The notes under the pieces: model-generated
Seen by the model: only the letters and a program-made list of their open reading frames with translations
The model's database searches: none
Told to the model about the DNA's origin: nothing
Part shown: positions 8,475 through 25,985 of the stretch, in pieces
How positions within the stretch are numbered: the first letter of the stretch is position 1
How the letters are laid out: the number at the start of each line of letters is the position of its first letter
Position numbers and translations under genes: made by a program
Source: a virus
Direction: 5' to 3' (one strand)
Length of the DNA stretch: 37,733 nucleotides
Virus record (IMG/VR): IMGVR_UViG_3300009156_000026
Location: 1-37,733 of that record

Positions 8475-9872
8475 CTAGACGCCGACGGGGATCCCAATCT
8501 CGGACTGCGTCCGAGTTGGGATCCCGACGGCCTGTCGAGACCCGGCGGCCTCCAGGCTGTCGTCGTCCTCATCGCCCAGGCTGACGTCGGCGGCCTGACG
8601 GACGCCGGTATCCAGCCCCTGGCTGTCGTCGTCGTCGTCGAACAGGTCCGACGGGACAGCAGCCGACTCGCGACGCAGCAGGCTCTGGAGCTCCTCGACG
8701 TCGCCGCCGAGCCCGACGTCCTGCATCACGGCAGATCCGCGCTTGCCGACCTTCTTGTCCATCTCCATCAGGCTGAGCCGCGCCTCGGCCCCGAGCGTGG
8801 TCAGCACGCCCTTGAGCTCCTCGGCCGAGCGCTTCTGTGACGGCTGGTCCAGGATGCCCTGGAGGGACGCCAGGCGCGCCTGCAAGGAGCCGTTGCCCTC
8901 GTCCCAGAAGTCGAGCAGCTTGGCCTGCTTCAGGAACTTGGAGAGGGCGGTGCTGCTGTTCCGATCCAGCTTGCCGTCGTTGTCCTGGGCGACCTTGAGG
9001 GCGGCCGAGACGGCGTCGAAGACCTGGGTCTGAAGCTGGACGCGGACCTCCTCGACGAACTGCGAGACGCCCTTGCCAGCCTTCTCCGAGGCGGTCCGCT
9101 CGACCTCGTCGAGCATGATCCGTTCGGCCTCGGTCAGGCGGATGTCGCCAGCGGCCACTCGGTCGCGCTCGACCCGTGCGAGGTCGGGCAGCGAGGTGCA
9201 GTAGAACTTGATCTTCAGCTTGGTGCGGATCGTCTGGACCGTCGGGATCTCGGCCGCGATCATGTCCAGCTTGCCCTGGACCCAGGCGTCCTTGTCCGCG
9301 AAGTTGTCGAGCCGGGCGCCCGTGCCGAGCACCTTCAGCCGATCGTGGGTGCCCTGGAGAAAGCCCAGGAACGCGGTCAGGGTCTCCTTCTTGAGGTCGT
9401 CGTACTGCTCCTCGACCTTGTCCAGGAGGAGCGCAAACTGACCCTCGACCTCGCGGTGCGCGGACAGCCACTCGGCAAACGCCGGCAGCGGGACCCAGGC
9501 GCCCCAGAAGGTGGCGTACGACCATTTCTCCAGGCGGTAGCGGGCGCGGGAGTCCAGCTTCTCGAACTCCTCGTGGATCCGCAGCGGCAGCAGGTAGCGG
9601 TGGCCAGGGGCCAGGAACTGCCGCAGCCGCTTGGCCTCCTCGGGGTCGGCCGGCTCGATCCCGAGCATCTCCAGATCAAGCTGCAGCTTGAAGCGCTCGC
9701 GGGAGATCGAGAGGTCGACGACCACGCCCTTCTCGGCGTACTTGAGCCAGCGCGCGTCACGGGCGTAGACCTCGACGCCGAGCGCCTCGGAGAGCTCACG
9801 GTTGAGCGAGTCCACGCCGTTCTTCCTGGTCGGGTCCTCGGTGCGGGTGATGGTCTGGGTCTGGTCTTCCAT
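8475..9872 (-). CDS. DUF3150-like helical protein with acidic C-terminal tail
   Basis: LLP...F...SRAR..L...S..TFWG.WVP pattern followed by long helices; AGGAGACCCACC-ATG; family call by eye. Confidence 0.55.
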   Translation of the reverse strand: MEDQTQTITRTEDPTRKNGVDSLNRELSEALGVEVYARDARWLKYAEKGVVVDLSISRERFKLQLDLEMLGIEPADPEEAKRLRQFLAPGHRYLLPLRIHEEFEKLDSRARYRLEKWSYATFWGAWVPLPAFAEWLSAHREVEGQFALLLDKVEEQYDDLKKETLTAFLGFLQGTHDRLKVLGTGARLDNFADKDAWVQGKLDMIAAEIPTVQTIRTKLKIKFYCTSLPDLARVERDRVAAGDIRLTEAERIMLDEVERTASEKAGKGVSQFVEEVRVQLQTQVFDAVSAALKVAQDNDGKLDRNSSTALSKFLKQAKLLDFWDEGNGSLQARLASLQGILDQPSQKRSAEELKGVLTTLGAEARLSLMEMDKKVGKRGSAVMQDVGLGGDVEELQSLLRRESAAVPSDLFDDDDDSQGLDTGVRQAADVSLGDEDDDSLEAAGSRQAVGIPTRTQSEIGIPVGV

Positions 9873-9903
9873 GGTGGGTCTCCTGGGGGTGGTGGGTGAG
9901 AGC

Positions 9904-10266
9904 CTAGCGCCGCACCTGCGGCTCGAAGAGCTCGTCGTCGTCGTCGTCGAACAAGGGGCGGGCCTCCGGCACCGTCGGGAGCGGTGCCGGAGTACCCGTG
10001 GCTGGGCTGTCCACGACAGGCTGGGTCGGCTCGGTCGGGACGCTGAACGTGTTACTGGCGAACGCGGCGCTCAGGTGCTTGCAGCGGAACCGCATCCGCT
10101 CCTCGGGTGAGCGCTCGGGGTTGCGGGTGGTCTGGAAGAAAAACGCCGGGCAACTGCACGTTGCTGAGCCGTCGTCGTAGACCACCAGTCGATACTCGGT
10201 CGGCAGGCCGGTGCTGCGCTCGACCCGATTGGCCGAACGCACCGAACCGCTCCAGATCGCCCGCAC
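9904..10266 (-). CDS. SWIM zinc-finger protein
   Basis: YRLVV...ATCSCPAF...CKHL (CxC...CxH); GAGGAGG SD, GTG start just after the ATPase stop. Confidence 0.8.
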   Translation of the reverse strand: MRAIWSGSVRSANRVERSTGLPTEYRLVVYDDGSATCSCPAFFFQTTRNPERSPEERMRFRCKHLSAAFASNTFSVPTEPTQPVVDSPATGTPAPLPTVPEARPLFDDDDDELFEPQVRR

Positions 10267-10267
10267 G

Positions 10268-12211
10268 TTACACCTCCTCGTCGTCGTACGCGTCGAAGGC
10301 ATCGGTGTCGGTGATGGCGGTCCGAGCGGCGCCGACCTGGGGACGGGCGGCGGTCTTGGCGCGGGCCTGCTGCTTGCCCACGCGGTCGCGGTACCGCTCC
10401 GGGACCAAGCTGCGGAAGTTGCAGGCGCGGACCGCGAGGTCGGTGTGGAGCTCGACGTCAGCCGTCGACCGCACCATGTCGTCGAGGCCGGCCTCGAAGG
10501 CTCTGGCTGAGACCGAGCGATCGTCGCCGTCCGTCTCGGGCATCAGCCTGAGGCGGACCCGGTAGCCGGCCTCACCGACCAGCGCTTCGAGCTCGGCCGG
10601 CGTCCAGAGGTCGGTCGCCTCCCCGATCGCGAGGAGCTCCGCGTCCGACGGCATCGGCACCCGCTTGCGCCGACAGAGCGCAGCCACGGCGGCTGCGCGC
10701 TCCGAGGCCGAGTCCGGCGGCAGCAAGGGGATCGTGTAGTCGATGCGACCCGGGCGCTTGAACGCCGCATCGATCTGGTCGGGCCTGTTGGTGGCCGCGA
10801 TCAGCAGGATCTTGCCACGGTGCTTGTCGTTCGAGAAGAACTTCAGGAGCTCCCCGAACGTGTTGCCCTCGACCGAGTCGCCACCACCACCGCCGCCGCC
10901 CACGACGCGCTTGACCTTCTGGTCGAGCTCGTCAATAAAGACGACACACGGCGCCAGCGCCTCGATCCCGGTCAGCGCCTTGCGGAGCTTCTTCTCCGAC
11001 TCCCCGACGTACTGACCCTTGATCTTGTCGGCCTGGAGCTCGACGCAGTTGAGGCCCGTTTCGTGGGCGATCGCGCGAGCCACCCAGGTCTTGCCGGTAC
11101 CGGCCGGGCCCGCGAACATCAGCCCCATCGGGCAGACGTCGTGGAGGTCGGGGTCGCGCAGGGTGTTCAGCACCCGCTCCTGGAGAAACTGCTTGGCCCG
11201 ATCGTGGCCGCCGACCATCTCGAAGGTGACGTCGGGTTCGAGGATCTCCAGGACCTCGGCGTACTCCGAGGCGATCAGGTCGGCTTTGCGCTCCTTGACC
11301 ATCTCGCGGGTCAGCCGCCCGCCGTTGGCCGCTGCCCGCATGGCGATATCTTCGATGTGCCGCCTGCCCAGGCCGGCTGTTTCGTTGGCGAGCTCCATCT
11401 CGGTCAGGCCGTCGAGCTCGGCCCGACGGTCGGGCAGGGTCCGCGCGATGAACGCCAGTCGCTGGTCGACATCGGGGACGCCGACCTCGATCGTGCGGAT
11501 GCCCGAGGTCGAGGTGCGGAGGTCCGGGTGGATGTCCTCCAGCGAGGGGGCCAGGATGATGACCAGGGCCTTGTTGCGGTTGATCTCGATCGAGCGGCCG
11601 GCGCGGTCGAGGATGGCGAGCAGGCGGCGGTCGGTCGGGCCGAGGCGGGCCTTGTCCTCGGGTGGGACAATCAAGTCGGCGCGCTCGACGATGATGGCGG
11701 CGCGGGCGCCGACGGCGCGGCGGGCCTCGCCACGGCCAACGACCCGCTGGGGGACGCCGGGCTCTTCGATGGTGGCGCCACGGGCCCACTCGATCAGCTT
11801 GTCGATGGCCGAGGGGGCGTCGTCGGGCAGCTTGCCCTGGTTGCCGGCACCGACCGCAGCACCGGCAGCGGCCAGCGCTGCGAGGGGGTTGAAGGCATCG
11901 GCCGCCGACTCGTCCTGCTGCTCGATGCCGAGCACCCGCTCGACCCAGGCTCGGGACTCCTTGGCCACGAGCTCGGTGCCCGGGAACGTGACCCCCTGAT
12001 CGGGGGCGAAGGTGGCGACCGCGTGCAGCCGCAGCAGGCGCTGTTCGAGGTACTCGCGCAGCGTCAGGTTGGTCGAGGGGTGCTCGACGTAGTCAGCGAC
12101 GGCGCCGTGCAGCACGAAGACGTTGGCGGTGCCCGCTCGGTAGGTGTTCTGGAGCTCCGTCCACCAGGACGGGGTGACGGGGGTGGACAGGACGTCGAGC
12201 TCTTCAGCCAT
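10268..12211 (-). CDS. AAA+ ATPase (Ycf46/SpoVK-like, degenerate N-terminal AAA domain)
   Basis: Walker A GPAGTGKT, pore loop GQYVGESE, Walker B VVFIDE, SRH AATNRPDQIDAAFKRPGRID. Confidence 0.92.
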   Translation of the reverse strand: MAEELDVLSTPVTPSWWTELQNTYRAGTANVFVLHGAVADYVEHPSTNLTLREYLEQRLLRLHAVATFAPDQGVTFPGTELVAKESRAWVERVLGIEQQDESAADAFNPLAALAAAGAAVGAGNQGKLPDDAPSAIDKLIEWARGATIEEPGVPQRVVGRGEARRAVGARAAIIVERADLIVPPEDKARLGPTDRRLLAILDRAGRSIEINRNKALVIILAPSLEDIHPDLRTSTSGIRTIEVGVPDVDQRLAFIARTLPDRRAELDGLTEMELANETAGLGRRHIEDIAMRAAANGGRLTREMVKERKADLIASEYAEVLEILEPDVTFEMVGGHDRAKQFLQERVLNTLRDPDLHDVCPMGLMFAGPAGTGKTWVARAIAHETGLNCVELQADKIKGQYVGESEKKLRKALTGIEALAPCVVFIDELDQKVKRVVGGGGGGGDSVEGNTFGELLKFFSNDKHRGKILLIAATNRPDQIDAAFKRPGRIDYTIPLLPPDSASERAAAVAALCRRKRVPMPSDAELLAIGEATDLWTPAELEALVGEAGYRVRLRLMPETDGDDRSVSARAFEAGLDDMVRSTADVELHTDLAVRACNFRSLVPERYRDRVGKQQARAKTAARPQVGAARTAITDTDAFDAYDDEEV

Positions 12212-12250
12212 CAGAGGGGTCTCCTATAGGGGTGAGTCTAGCGAGCAGTC

Positions 12251-12308
12251 GGGCCCGCTCGCAGAGCACCCGCTGGCAGGTAGCCAGTGGGTGCCTAGCG
12301 GCCGGGTC
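12251..12308. repeat. Conserved intergenic hairpin, copy B
   Basis: GGGCCCGCTCGCAGAGCACCC...GGGTGCCTAGCGGCCGGGTC, compensatory T-A to G-C change versus copies A and C. Confidence 0.85.
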
Positions 12309-12322
12309 AGGCTGAGGGGTTT

Positions 12323-12547
12323 CTAGTGGTGGCTGGCGCCCAGACGGTGGGCGACCTGATGGGACTTGTCGTCGAGGTGCTTCTCGGGCTCGGACAGCCC
12401 GACGATCGGGAGCTCGGTGCCGATGACCCGAAAGAAGCGCTTCAGGGCTGGGCCCGCTTTCTCGAAGGTGGTGCCCGAGGGGATGCCCGCCGACAGCGAG
12501 CCGTCCGGGCCCTGGATCAGGATGATCTCGATCGTCTCGGCGCTCAT
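12323..12547 (-). CDS. Small DUF2997-like protein
   Basis: TAAGGAG SD; TIEIILIQGPDGSL beta-hairpin start, 74 aa, directly upstream of AAA ATPase; family by resemblance and synteny. Confidence 0.5.
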   Translation of the reverse strand: MSAETIEIILIQGPDGSLSAGIPSGTTFEKAGPALKRFFRVIGTELPIVGLSEPEKHLDDKSHQVAHRLGASHH

Positions 12548-12557
12548 GGGTGGCTCC

Positions 12558-12968
12558 TTAGAGGGGGATGCGGATCTTGGTGACGCGGGCCGCGCCCTGG
12601 CGGGCGTCCGACTGGATGGCAAGCTGGCCGTACTGGGCCTTGATGGCGGCGACCAGCCGCTCCTGGACGAGCGGGATGGCCAGCGCCTGGGCGAGCTCGG
12701 TGGCCTTGGCCGAGAGGGCGGCGATCTGGGCGGGGGTCAGGTCCAGCCGAGATGCCTGCACCTGGATGCCGTCTGCCCAGATGCGGACGGTGGCGGTGCG
12801 GCTGGTCAGGTAGGCGGTCTCGCCGTTGCGCTGGATGACGGGGACGCCGCCCATCACCTGGGCGAGCGCCTGGGCCAGCGCCTTGAGGCCGGCCTCGGAC
12901 TTGAGGAGCTCGACGCCGTACTTGGCGTCGAGCCGAGCGGAAACCACGGCGAGCATCGAACACACCAT
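12558..12968 (-). CDS. DUF1257/Ycf35-like protein
   Basis: 136 aa, C-terminal helix then beta-hairpin (QERLVAAIKAQYG...VTKIRI); synteny with DUF2997-like and AAA genes; family inferred. Confidence 0.45.
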   Translation of the reverse strand: MVCSMLAVVSARLDAKYGVELLKSEAGLKALAQALAQVMGGVPVIQRNGETAYLTSRTATVRIWADGIQVQASRLDLTPAQIAALSAKATELAQALAIPLVQERLVAAIKAQYGQLAIQSDARQGAARVTKIRIPL

Positions 12969-19565: not shown

Positions 19566-20150
19566 ATGTCCAGCGCACCGCAGCAGGAGCTACTGCGCGC
19601 AGCGGCCCCGGCTGCGGAGACGTCTCCAGGCTACGCGCTGGTGGGTGGGCAGCGGTACGAGCTCGTGGGCGGCCCCGACGGCGGCCTGTCGGTGGTGATC
19701 CCGGGGGTGGACGGCACCGAGGACACGGCGGCGATCCCGGAGCGGCTGGTGCGGTTCATCGGGGCCCCGGTCGTCGTGTCGGTCCAGCTACGCCAGAGCA
19801 ACCGCCTGATGAGCACGCCCGAGCCCGGGTCGGAGTTCGTGGGGGTCATCACGGGCTGGTCGATCGCGCTTGACGGGGTGGTGGTGTACGGCGGGATGCT
19901 GGTCTCGATCGACCCGCAGCCGGCCCTGGTGCAGGCGGCAGCCACGCTGCCACGGCTGCTGGCGCTGCCGATCAAGCTGCAGGACGAGGGCGACTGGCTG
20001 GGCCGCCTCGTCTACCTGGACGGACGGACGGCGGTCATCGCCGGACTGCGCGGCAACTACGGCGAGCTCATCCTGATGGTCGGGGAAGAGGAGCACTGGG
20101 TGCCGATCCTGTCCGATCGGATCGCCTGGGAGACGTCTCCCGATGAGTGA
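19566..20150 (+). CDS. Hypothetical protein
   Basis: AGGAGG SD before MSSAPQQ; overlaps next start. Confidence 0.7.
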   Translation: MSSAPQQELLRAAAPAAETSPGYALVGGQRYELVGGPDGGLSVVIPGVDGTEDTAAIPERLVRFIGAPVVVSVQLRQSNRLMSTPEPGSEFVGVITGWSIALDGVVVYGGMLVSIDPQPALVQAAATLPRLLALPIKLQDEGDWLGRLVYLDGRTAVIAGLRGNYGELILMVGEEEHWVPILSDRIAWETSPDE

Positions 20151-21417
20151 CGTGCTGGACATGGTGCTGGTCGCACCGCAGGCGCCCGCACGCCAGCGCT
20201 GGTTCGAGCTCGACGCCTCCAGGCTGGCGCTGGTCTTCGACCCGTCGACCCCGTTTGAGGCGTGGCAAGAGGCCACGACGCGGCTGCTGGAAGCCGCGAG
20301 AGGGGTGCAATGGTGGCTGGGTGACGCGCTGGCCTTCGGGGAGGACGCCTACGGGGAGGACGCGAGCGCACTGTTCGACCCCGAGCGGTACAGCTTCGAG
20401 TCGATCGACAGGATGGCCAGGGTGGCCCGCGCGATCCCACCATCCAGGCGCCGCCCGACGGTCGGGTTCTACCAGCACATGGCGGTGACAGGGCTGCCGG
20501 CCCCGATCCAGGACGCGCTGCTGGACTTTGCTGCCGAGCACCACACCACGGTTGCGGACATGCGGGTGCTGGTCAGGTCGGAGTCACGACGGCTGGAGCG
20601 CGAGCGGGCAGCAGCCCTCCCAGCCCCCCAGCTTCTCCTGGACGGCATCCGGATCGAGGTGGGCGACGCAACAGCCCTGCCGCTGGCCCCAGACAGCGTG
20701 GACGTCCTGGTGACGAGCCCGCCGTACGGCCTCGACAGCGCGACGGTGGCGAAGTATCGGGTCGCAGACGAGTCGACGGCCTGGGTGCGGCTGATGCTGG
20801 CGTTTCTCGCGGAGGCGTATCGGGTGCTCGCTCCGCAGGGACGACTGCTGGTCAATGTGCCGATCGACACGACGACGGGCGGCCATCGGCCCGTCTATGC
20901 GCAACTGGTGGCAGCAGCGGTCGAGGCGGGCTTCCACTATCGCAGCACGATCAGGTGGGCGGACGGGCACCTGGGCAGGTCGACGGCCAGGGGCAGCGTG
21001 GACTCAGCGGGCGCCGTGAACGTGATCGCGCCGTGCGAGACGGTGCTGGTGGCACACAAGGGGGAGTGGAAGCGCCCAGCAAGGACGAACGACATCGGGC
21101 ACGAGGAGTGGGTCTCCTGGTGCAACGGGGACTGGGCGCTACCCGGCGAGGGGCGGCCATGGGAGGGCTTCGAGGCAGCGTACCCGGCGTCGCTGCCCAG
21201 GCGGCTGCTGAAGCTGTTCTCGTTCCGCGAGGACGTGGTCCTGGACCCGTTCCTGGGATCTGGGACGACAGCGGTGGTGGCGTACGAGCTCGGACGAACG
21301 TGCCTGGGGTTCGACATTGACCCACTGCAGGTGGCATCCGCGACGCGCCGACTGGCGGTCGTAGCGAGGAGGTCCCATGGACGGGCGGCTGACGATCGCG
21401 ATCGAGGGACCGTCTGA
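20143..21417 (+). CDS. LmbU-like domain fused to beta-class N4/N6 DNA methyltransferase
   Basis: N-terminal QWWLGD.L.FGE..YG...VAR.....RRR....QH; motif IV VTSPPY before motif I DPFLGSGTT. Confidence 0.85.
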   Translation: MSDVLDMVLVAPQAPARQRWFELDASRLALVFDPSTPFEAWQEATTRLLEAARGVQWWLGDALAFGEDAYGEDASALFDPERYSFESIDRMARVARAIPPSRRRPTVGFYQHMAVTGLPAPIQDALLDFAAEHHTTVADMRVLVRSESRRLERERAAALPAPQLLLDGIRIEVGDATALPLAPDSVDVLVTSPPYGLDSATVAKYRVADESTAWVRLMLAFLAEAYRVLAPQGRLLVNVPIDTTTGGHRPVYAQLVAAAVEAGFHYRSTIRWADGHLGRSTARGSVDSAGAVNVIAPCETVLVAHKGEWKRPARTNDIGHEEWVSWCNGDWALPGEGRPWEGFEAAYPASLPRRLLKLFSFREDVVLDPFLGSGTTAVVAYELGRTCLGFDIDPLQVASATRRLAVVARRSHGRAADDRDRGTV

Positions 21418-22861: not shown

Positions 22862-23029
22862 GGGGGGTACCCAACACCATATCGCGTACTGGTGTCGCAT
22901 AGATGGGAGCGGTCTGTCTGCTCTGTTGTGTCCCGATTTTCCACCGCGCCAGGGAGCTTTTCCAGCCAGATCGGAAAATTTTTGGCCATCTTGGCCCGGA
23001 TTCTCCGCCGTTCCCGACAGGAGCCGACC

Positions 23030-23284
23030 GTGGATGACGACCTCCTGGCCGAGCTAGTCGCGGCCGTCAACCGCATAGCCGAGCGTCTCGCCTCGTCCAA
23101 CGTCGGGGACTCCAACGGCGAGATGGCCTACATCGTGGACGTGATCGACCGTCAGGCCCGCGCCACCGAGCTCCTGTCGGAGTCCGTTGATGAGGTCGCC
23201 CGTCAGATCGGGGAGGTTGCCAGTGCCATCGGGAGTGTGGCCGAGGCGCTTGCCAACCTCGCCGTGGCCCAGGACAGCCGATGA
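23030..23284 (+). CDS. Small helical hypothetical protein
   Basis: AGGAG SD before GTG; heptad-like pattern. Confidence 0.65.
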   Translation: MDDDLLAELVAAVNRIAERLASSNVGDSNGEMAYIVDVIDRQARATELLSESVDEVARQIGEVASAIGSVAEALANLAVAQDSR

Positions 23285-24880
23285 CCAGCCGTCCCGCCGC
23301 AGGTCGACCCCAGCCTCATCTTGCCTGCCCGGCCGACGAACCCTGCCGAATCGCCCCTGGCCCTCTCGCATCGGTCCGACAGACCAGTCCAGATCCTGGT
23401 CACATCGAACCGTACCGATCCAGGCCGACCACCCGTGTCTCGCCGTATCGACGATCCAGGCCGAGCCGAATCGGTCCCCCTCCTTCCTCGCCCTGCCGAC
23501 CGTTCGGACCATGCTGGCCCAGTACGGCTCAGTCCAGACCCTTCCCGTCCGACATCCCAGTACCGCGTCACCCCGTGCTCCACCTCCCTGGACCTTCCCC
23601 GATGACGAGCCTATCCCGGCCACGCGACCCCGTGCCCGCCCTCCACGACATTCCCCACCTGAGCACCCCAGTCCCGTCCGACCTGTCAATCCCCCTCGCA
23701 CCATGCCCGGCTGAGCCGTGTCGACCACCCTTCCCGGGCCTCGACATGCCATTCCTTGCCTGCCCGACAGACCGTTCCCGGCCAACTCCCAACAGCCCCC
23801 GACGGGCCGACCTTCCGACCTCCTCCGCGCCTCGCCATGCTGTTCCCGTCCGACGACCCTGGCCATGTCGATGCTGGCCCAGCCGCCCCGACCATCCTGG
23901 CCCCACCAGCCCCCTTCCCCCCACATCGACATACCAGACCAAGCCCGACCTCGCTGACCCGCCGCCCCACATCGACTCGTTGCGGATCGCCCCCGCCCCT
24001 GTCAGACGACGCGCCTCGCCATGCCCACGCCGTGTCACCACGTGCCTAGCCTTGGCCATGCCGACGAGCCACGCCTCCACGTCGCAGCCCTCGCCCGATC
24101 CGCCCAGCCTACCCACTGATGGGCGACCTGCCGCGTCGAGCCGATCTGAGCCGTCGCAGCCTGTCCCTGGCCGAGCCAGCCCGTACCTCCCCGAGCCACA
24201 CCGATCCGACGACCCTTGCCGCATCACCTCCGCCCTCGACCGCCCGACCATCCACCCCGCGCCGATCCTCGCCCAGCCACATGACGACGCACGACCGACC
24301 GTGCCTAGCTCACCCTCGTCGATCCCCGGTGACCCACCGCGCTGTACCCCGCCTGATCTGCTCGTACCGACGAACCGTCACAGGCCGCGACCCACCGAGT
24401 CAGGTCACGTCGCTACCACCCACCGACCCTCCCGACCCGCTGGACCCCCACCAGGACGCGCCGCCCCGACGAGCCGACTCGTGCAGCGCCGTCACCGTCC
24501 TCCCCGACTTCCCATACCGCTCCTCCCCCCTCCCGGCGCCTCCCCTACCGGCCTTTGCCCGCCCCCGCCTGACATCCCAAGACGAGCCAAGCCGCCTCAT
24601 TGGCCCTGCCGTGGCGCCGCCAGCCGAGCCAAGCCAGCCCGACGGCCCTATCCAATCTCTCCCACCCCACGCCACGCCGACTCGCCATGTCTCGCTGCGC
24701 CTGCCCGCGTCCGTGCTGCCTCAGCCCATGCCGCGTCCGACATACCAACCCAGCCCGTGGCGCGCCCCTCCCCCCCGGTTCGCACCGACCGACCGCCCAT
24801 CTCACACCTCCCCTCCCAAGCGCAGTTCCGTCCCAACCACGTCGACAACCTTCGTCCACCCCGCCCGAGCCATCCGAGCC
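23283..24880. repeat. Array of about 35 units, each GAC + (NNN[C/T]C)n; putative guide-like repeat RNA array
   Basis: Manual parsing gives 5-nt periodicity punctuated by GAC, e.g. delimiters at 23680, 23723, 23766, 23809, 23852 (exact 43-nt spacing). Confidence 0.88.
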
Positions 24881-24912
24881 CCACGGGAGGTTTCGTGTCC
24901 TGGCCACCTGCC

Positions 24913-25155
24913 ATGAAGCTCGTCTCGGTCGAGTGGATCGACTCCAACGGGACGAGTACCTGGACCCCCTACGACGACATGCTGTCCGACGTCAAGCAGC
25001 GCGACCTGACCTGCCGCACCGTCGGCTGGCAGATGCTCGATGCGCCTGATCGGATCGCCATCGTCAGCAGCCAGACCGCCAGTGGATCCGTGGCCGACGC
25101 CACGGTCATCCCCCGCGTCGCCGTGCTCTCGATCACCGAGATCACACCACCATAG
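24913..25155 (+). CDS. Small beta-rich phage protein
   Basis: V.VEW.DS...W...C.TVG...IP..AV.SI pattern; GGGAGG SD could instead serve GTG at 24895. Confidence 0.75.
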   Translation: MKLVSVEWIDSNGTSTWTPYDDMLSDVKQRDLTCRTVGWQMLDAPDRIAIVSSQTASGSVADATVIPRVAVLSITEITPP

Positions 25156-25163
25156 GAGGCTCG

Positions 25164-25985
25164 ATGAAGATCTTCCTGAGCGGCAAGATCGACCGTCAGC
25201 ACGGCGCGTGGCGCGACAAGCTCGTCGGTAGCACCTACGACTACCAGACCCAGCGCCAGCGTCCGCATTGGGAGATCGAGGTCTCGCTGCAAGACAACGA
25301 CACCTGGGCCCACGACATCCCGCCCTGGCCCCGCGCCGCCAACACCTGGATCCTTGGCCACCACGAGTACGTGGGCCCGTACCGCGTCGATCTCGCTGAG
25401 GATGACGATGACAACAGCAGCCTCGGTACCTTCCATGGCTCGACCTGGGACGGCAGCCATGGGGTCATGACCGACGACACCCGCGTGGCCGTCGCCTCGG
25501 AGTGCCGCCAGGGCATCGCTCGGGCTGACCTCGTCTTCGCCTACCTCAACACCCCGGATTGCTTCGGCACCCTGGTCGAGATCGGCGTAGCTCTGGCCCT
25601 GGGTCGCTTCACCTACGTGGTCATCAGCGACGAGGCCGAGTGGGAGTACGGCGACTACTGGCTGATCGAGGCGATGGGGGCCCGCCTGCGCTACCTGGAG
25701 TACCCTGAGTCACGCCTCTGGGCTGCTGACCCGCCGCCGCCCGAGCCGGTCCTGCTCGACCTCCACCTCCGCGACGCCATCATCGCCTGGGCCGCGACCG
25801 TCGGGGAGCGTCAGCCGACCAGCCTGACACCTGCCCACCGCCCGACCATCGCGATCCGTATGCTCGACTCCGAGGAGCGGACCGAGATCGCCCGCTCGTT
25901 CAACCTGATCGCGCGTTGGACCTCCGACCCCAGAGTTCGCGCTGAGGCCCGCCGCATGCTCGGTCGTCTGGCTGGTGCTTCCTGA
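25164..25985 (+). CDS. Nucleoside 2-deoxyribosyltransferase-like protein
   Basis: KIFLSGKI N-terminus; IARADLVFAYL...GTLVEIG.A.ALGR catalytic-Glu motif. Confidence 0.78.
   Translation: MKIFLSGKIDRQHGAWRDKLVGSTYDYQTQRQRPHWEIEVSLQDNDTWAHDIPPWPRAANTWILGHHEYVGPYRVDLAEDDDDNSSLGTFHGSTWDGSHGVMTDDTRVAVASECRQGIARADLVFAYLNTPDCFGTLVEIGVALALGRFTYVVISDEAEWEYGDYWLIEAMGARLRYLEYPESRLWAADPPPPEPVLLDLHLRDAIIAWAATVGERQPTSLTPAHRPTIAIRMLDSEERTEIARSFNLIARWTSDPRVRAEARRMLGRLAGAS

Follow-up and report, generated by a model that had tools for sequence, protein, structure and literature searches.

The stretch of DNA analysed here (the window) comprises 37,733 nucleotides (nt), the first 37.7 kb of the 108,690-base virus record IMGVR_UViG_3300009156_000026 (89% complete), a soil phage present in sequencing runs that are rhizosphere metagenomes. 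Within a series of plus-strand genes the window carries a 1.6-kb array of short GAC-led units, considered below as a candidate guide-RNA array. The only other such tract in the phage lies 71 kb from the array, outside the window on the same contig (C1 of G000), beside a single-copy gene, P0001, which encodes a stand-alone protein of the Cas7/RAMP fold. No Cas1 was found in the virus record at its 89% completeness. The main features are as follows.

23283..24880, plus strand (as indicated by gene context): putative guide-RNA precursor of 35 units, each a GAC followed by NN-x-CC pentamers, defined by period and parse
23680..23889, plus strand: cleanest part of the array, with GAC at 23680, 23723, 23766, 23809 and 23852, each exactly 43 nt on
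G000:C1:96328-97314, minus strand: P0001, the stand-alone Cas7/RAMP-fold gene and presumed partner of the array, outside the window
C1:97320-97545, minus strand: second tract of about four GAC-led units, between P0001 and the accessory gene
C1:97548-98150, minus strand: accessory gene (200 amino acids), a conserved upstream neighbour of the RAMP gene

Autocorrelation of 23283-24880, the check proposed in a preliminary description of the sequence, gave a period-5 signal (z 6.0 at lag 5 and z 5.4 at lag 10) with additional peaks at lags 38, 43 and 48 and no period-3 signal; no comparable period-5 stretch occurs elsewhere in the 37.7-kb window. A model consisting of GAC delimiters, pentamers and single-base slips parses the array with a score of 382.5, compared with 36.0 ± 10.3 (maximum 54) for 30 dinucleotide shuffles fitted identically. 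The parse contains 35 units with at least four pentamers, 26 of which are slip-free; 30 of 41 delimiter spacings are of the form 5n+3 and most units hold 7–10 pentamers (38–53 nt). The preliminary description had reported about 35 non-identical units of mostly 5n+3 length with few slips, including five delimiters 43 nt apart at 23680-23852, and all of this is recovered here. Its nearly fixed C at position 5 and C or T at position 4 are likewise reflected in the information content of pentamer positions 1–5 (0.04, 0.02, 0.11, 0.79 and 1.46 bits), with positions 1–2 near-uninformative, and in the pentamer endings (CC in 192 and YC in 238 of 288). G is the most frequent base at position 3, and the G+C content of positions 1–2 is lower than that of position 3.

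The units are not copies of one another, the longest internal repeat being 15 nt. No CRISPR-like repeats were found in the array, which together with the lack of Cas1 agrees with the earlier statement that this is not a CRISPR array; CRISPR arrays depend on Cas1 and have unique spacers between identical repeats of about 23–47 nt. Neither a folding signal in the units nor an Rfam ribozyme at the array was detected. Four other sequencing runs, one of which comes from the same sample as a possible source, contain contigs that agree with parts of the array at 99% or more, and the array is therefore not an assembly artefact. The array is real.

Its immediate surroundings, including an open frame that spans it, comprise the following.

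22892..23284, plus strand: small upstream gene (130 amino acids from the first start codon), the stop codon of which overlaps the first GAC; no Pfam or PHROG match
23281..25155, plus strand: 624-residue open frame spanning the array, proline-rich and without codon-position bias
24895..25155, plus strand: small phage gene phrog_25889 (a family without assigned function), directly 3' of the array, with a GTG start after a GGGAGG site
25164..25985, plus strand: nucleoside 2-deoxyribosyltransferase-like gene, a neighbour that nothing ties to the system

The RAMP-fold gene and related loci

Vipr is a stand-alone RAMP protein with an RRM core, a thumb and a G-loop. The predicted fold of P0001 matches Cas7/Csm3/Cmr, and the nearest solved folds are Csm3, Cmr and type VII Cas7; no VIPR structure was among the chains listed in this comparison, so that closeness to Csm3 is of little informative value. 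The clade comprises 2,135 representatives at 50% identity, and the nearest Atlas clusters are 92–100% viral. When the family was searched against the genome of Escherichia phage SUSP1, which carries a type II VIPR system, SUSP1 Vipr was the top frame, with weak scores (E 0.015–0.033). In 13 of 26 loci the accessory gene is conserved as the upstream neighbour of the RAMP gene, and no similarity was found between it and SUSP1 vap1.

A G-loop motif is invariant in the homolog alignment (A1). In the SUSP1 structure, as described in bioRxiv 10.64898/2026.04.26.720927, the G-loop residues D177 and W178 read the two guanines. The motif was found in 140 of 150 homologs of P0001, in which the equivalent positions are never D or W and the first is Ala in 116. 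On this alignment, which is weak and anchored on the G-x-G-x-x-R loop, the guanine-reading residues of SUSP1 are replaced in the P0001 family.

Association of the gene with the array was assessed at 31 RAMP-homolog loci (25 from IMG/VR, five from GTDB, of which four are from Chloroflexota and one is from Betaproteobacteria, and phage Mae-JY09), several of which are near-duplicates. A pentamer tract with GAC delimiters (AAC in one case) was called at 28 of the 31 and recognized by eye at one more; the remaining two loci end at or just past the gene. The link to VIPR-type systems drawn in the preliminary description is supported by this association and by the stand-alone RAMP-fold gene beside a tract of the same grammar in the phage itself. 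Arrays remote from the RAMP gene likewise occur in three other genomes (G016, G022 and G023). At several loci the pentamer preceding GAC does not vary, so that the two together form a constant 8-nt word (10 of 11 units at L035, six of seven at L025, four of four at L023, 21 of 58 at L029, and seven of nine at L022 as two near-identical words); in the window array this pentamer is not fixed (3 of 33).

Some of these loci have features of their own. L029 (G023:C1:50083-55199) has three arrays, about 58 units in all, around one RAMP gene, and a remote array of the same genome, at ∼36.9 kb, terminates on the C-rich strand with a hairpin and, after it, a run of T. At L020 (5410-5660) and L028 (5430-5700) the arrays are located upstream of the RAMP gene on the opposite strand, co-directional with the next divergent gene. 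Microcystis phage Mae-JY09 (PP395641.1) carries the accessory gene, the RAMP gene and the same type of array at 37174-38900, all unannotated, in a locus of 73% G+C; as a deposited phage that has been isolated, it makes the system accessible to tests.

The orientation of the C-rich strand relative to the neighbouring genes was compared for 38 arrays, hand-picked from 27 records and oriented with the analysis's own gene scorer. It agrees with both neighbours in 26 arrays, with the upstream neighbour only in ten (eight convergent and two at a contig end), with the downstream neighbour only in two and with neither in none. By comparison, it is the GGY strand that is co-directional with vipr in SUSP1. 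Since gene context favours the plus strand, the C-rich plus strand is taken as the RNA, which is probably correct. The preliminary description had likened the minus strand to the GGY repeats of VIPR; GGN-NN indeed fits 192 of 288 minus-strand pentamers, but GGY fits only 105 of 288 and gene context points to the other strand. A transcript of this presumed strand, which is 49% C, might be protected from Rho termination by ribosomes moving along the stop-free frame across the array.

Comparison with VIPR and class 1 CRISPR systems

The system shares with SUSP1 type II VIPR (bioRxiv 10.64898/2026.04.26.720920 and 10.64898/2026.04.26.720927) a phage-encoded stand-alone RAMP protein with one accessory gene and non-coding tandem units of 5 nt in which two bases are hypervariable, without Cas1 or a CRISPR array. 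The number of steps per unit is also similar (mostly 7–10 here and 9–16 in SUSP1). The fixed bases differ, being x-CC on the gene strand here and GGY in SUSP1. Units here adjoin with only GAC between them, whereas canonical VIPR has a long, invariant and structured 3' tail, and about 35 units are gathered in a single array at a distance of 71 kb from the gene, in contrast to four vrRNAs beside the gene in SUSP1. The D177/W178 equivalents are replaced, the accessory gene is dissimilar to vap1 and the protein similarity is marginal.

Seven VIPR types with GGY/NN or NNNGG, YNNNG and NNNNG repeats, together with staggered and ribozyme arrays, are described in bioRxiv 10.64898/2026.04.26.720920, which tabulates 670 Vipr proteins; as points of likeness to the present array it mentions degenerate scaffolds and head-to-tail arrangements, and overlap with one of the types other than II (I and III–VII) is possible. 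Neither a C-rich sense scaffold nor a GAC delimiter is named in the text and legends available from that source, or in the available passages of bioRxiv 2026.10.15.759431 and 10.64898/2026.10.21.760802. The last of these reports a survey (COMPASS) with 21 clusters of Vipr-like proteins beside 5-nt arrays with a non-GGY triplet, for example GAC/NN, CAC/NN, WGT/NN and TGH/NN; a GAC triplet there is repeated in each pentamer as its fixed part, whereas here a single GAC delimits each unit and the pentamer core is x-CC. Solo vrRNAs more than 20 kb from a vipr gene, or without one, which divert VIPR, are described in bioRxiv 2026.10.15.759431.

The present array resembles class 1 CRISPR in the Cas7 fold, in units of 8 nt plus whole subunit steps and, in several relatives, in an invariant 8-nt word, with GAC or AAC at its end, between the variable parts. 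Class 1 CRISPR RNAs carry an 8-nt 5' handle. The system differs in having neither Cas1 nor long repeats, in a step of 5 rather than 6 nt, in scaffold bases that lie inside the guide and in a word that in the window is GAC only. The possible parallel between the 8-nt word and the class 1 handle is a lead and not a result. Overall, the array behaves as a VIPR guide array but lacks the canonical GGY scaffold and tail, and is likely to represent a variant of VIPR rather than a plain member.

Target searches and alternative readings

The preliminary description proposed that the variable bases spell a gapped target, and this found no support: no match above the shuffled or control level was obtained in the phage's own genome, the related loci, IMG/VR or Chloroflexota. 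Ten codes, including three-base and other skips, gave no excess over shuffled guides in the own genome, and none was seen in related loci of 442 kb (132 guides) and 1.05 Mb (75 guides). Six exact scans of IMG/VR produced nine matches, eight of which failed to extend. The ninth (20/20) was rejected: its skip falls at codon position 2, the other 30 units tested had no match on that contig and the same pattern has five matches in metagenomes, spread over four unrelated loci. In 401 Chloroflexota genomes, one search gave five matches against three for the control and another three against three. The searches of large collections used six of the 35 units and mostly required exact matches, and are accordingly weak tests. 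The dinucleotide composition fits codon positions 1–2 best.

The favoured reading, in which the array stores two-base-per-step guides for the phage's own RAMP protein, has to be set against several results besides the lack of any target above chance. A signal of 1-nt skip order across loci (z 2.4) falls to z −0.04 under within-locus permutation. Position 3 is weakly constrained (0.11 bits) and may pair with the target, in which case the code may differ. Units at L023 (6631-6818) and L035 (2240-2703) follow the fixed 8-nt word with only 4–6 variable pentamers; at two bases per pentamer this would be too little for specificity, unless position 3 also pairs. The strand assignment rests on gene calls, not on RNA, and the similarity of the P0001 family to SUSP1 Vipr is marginal (hhalign probability 2.6%).

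Several of these points could be accommodated by a guide array for the same protein with another read-out, for example one in which each step has three variable bases, the skip is different or, as for type III Csm3, RNA is targeted. The low constraint on position 3, the RNA-targeting nature of the nearest solved folds (Csm3, Cmr and type VII Cas7), the specificity that the short L023 and L035 units would gain and a contiguous three-base model in the order test (z 1.6, p 0.053) are consistent with this, but neither a three-base nor an other-skip target was found in the own genome or related loci, the lower G+C at positions 1–2 than at position 3 fits a 2+1 codon pattern, and the Csm3 resemblance says little for the reason given above; such a read-out is improbable. 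Equally small is the probability that this is a VIPR type already on record, with the RNA made from the minus strand: the GGN-NN pentamers (NNNGG consensus) would then be guides in a staggered array whose transcription opposes that of the local genes. The NNNGG, YNNNG and NNNNG variants and staggered arrays listed in bioRxiv 10.64898/2026.04.26.720920 offer a precedent; however, at least 26 of the 38 arrays would have to be transcribed antisense, some of them no more than about 30 nt from where the RAMP gene starts or stops, the residues that read guanines are missing, and the staggered arrays in the legend of that source overlap by 1 nt whereas the units here shift phase by +3.

A decoy or sponge RNA that soaks up or tunes RAMP filaments, whether the phage's own or a competitor's, would explain both the lack of targets and the 71 kb between array and gene, and the solo vrRNAs described in bioRxiv 2026.10.15.759431 provide an analogy. 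This is nevertheless very unlikely, given that the phage has its own RAMP gene and that the units all differ and have guide-like lengths, as in gene-adjacent arrays. The 624-residue frame raises the further possibility that the 5-nt pattern is a by-product, the locus being a gene for a proline-rich protein or else a degenerate satellite. The frame begins at an ATGA overlap, continues into the downstream gene and is the one free of stops across the array (9/0/3 stops in the three frames; P = 0.011 when pentamers are permuted, post hoc). Its G+C by codon position is flat (0.71/0.71/0.69), compared with about 0.9 at third positions of real genes here. A match to a phage family is confined to its last 80–86 residues, all three frames contain stops in the longest arrays among the relatives (L011 and L029), and the grammar tracks the RAMP gene family. 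The protein-gene or satellite explanation is thus largely refuted and extremely improbable; judged from these sequence properties, the frame probably encodes functional protein only in its last 86 residues.

Three other regions of the phage stand out. A 6,325-residue open frame occupies G000:C1:50779-69753 in the structural region. In the window, 8475-12968 (minus strand) holds a cluster of a small protein, an AAA+ ATPase, a SWIM zinc-finger protein and a 465-residue protein without a family match, and 20143-21417 encodes an N-terminal domain without a family match fused to an N4/N6 DNA methyltransferase.

Proposed mechanism and implications

The array is very probably the RNA partner of the RAMP protein family. 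That it is a store of about 35 C-rich guides for the phage's own RAMP protein, acting in a VIPR-like manner by the full mechanism proposed here, is favoured on balance with moderate confidence. In this mechanism the array would be co-transcribed with the surrounding operon from the plus strand, and the transcript would be cut at or near each GAC to give RNAs of 38–53 nt. One P0001 subunit would bind per pentamer, with the x-CC bases buried, and by analogy with SUSP1 the two exposed variable bases would pair with double-stranded DNA, one target base being skipped per step. The filament and the accessory protein could then repress genes belonging to competing phages, satellites or the host. Of all this, the grammar, the RAMP fold, the association of gene and array, the bias in orientation and the altered G-loop are established by the sequences, whereas the strand, the cutting, the skip rule, the DNA target and the silencing are inferred.

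VIPR has been proposed as the ancestor of class 1 CRISPR, and only GGY types are characterized. It is possible, although doubtful, that a separate large clade of phage RAMP proteins switched its guide scaffold from GG to CC through the G-loop and acquired CRISPR-like arrays with a GAC or 8-nt handle, which would make it a living intermediate linking single VIPR RNAs to the arrays of class 1 CRISPR with their 8-nt handle, and would give it a second, orthogonal programmable code. If so, arrays of 35–58 guides would imply an as yet undescribed way of writing new guides. The C-rich clade, as a natural G-loop swap, makes it testable which residues set scaffold specificity, and its handle-like delimiters make it testable how single guides became repeat-delimited arrays. 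To this the phage described here adds a very large array remote from its effector gene, and a compact, tail-less guide of 38–53 nt would be a simpler programmable silencer.
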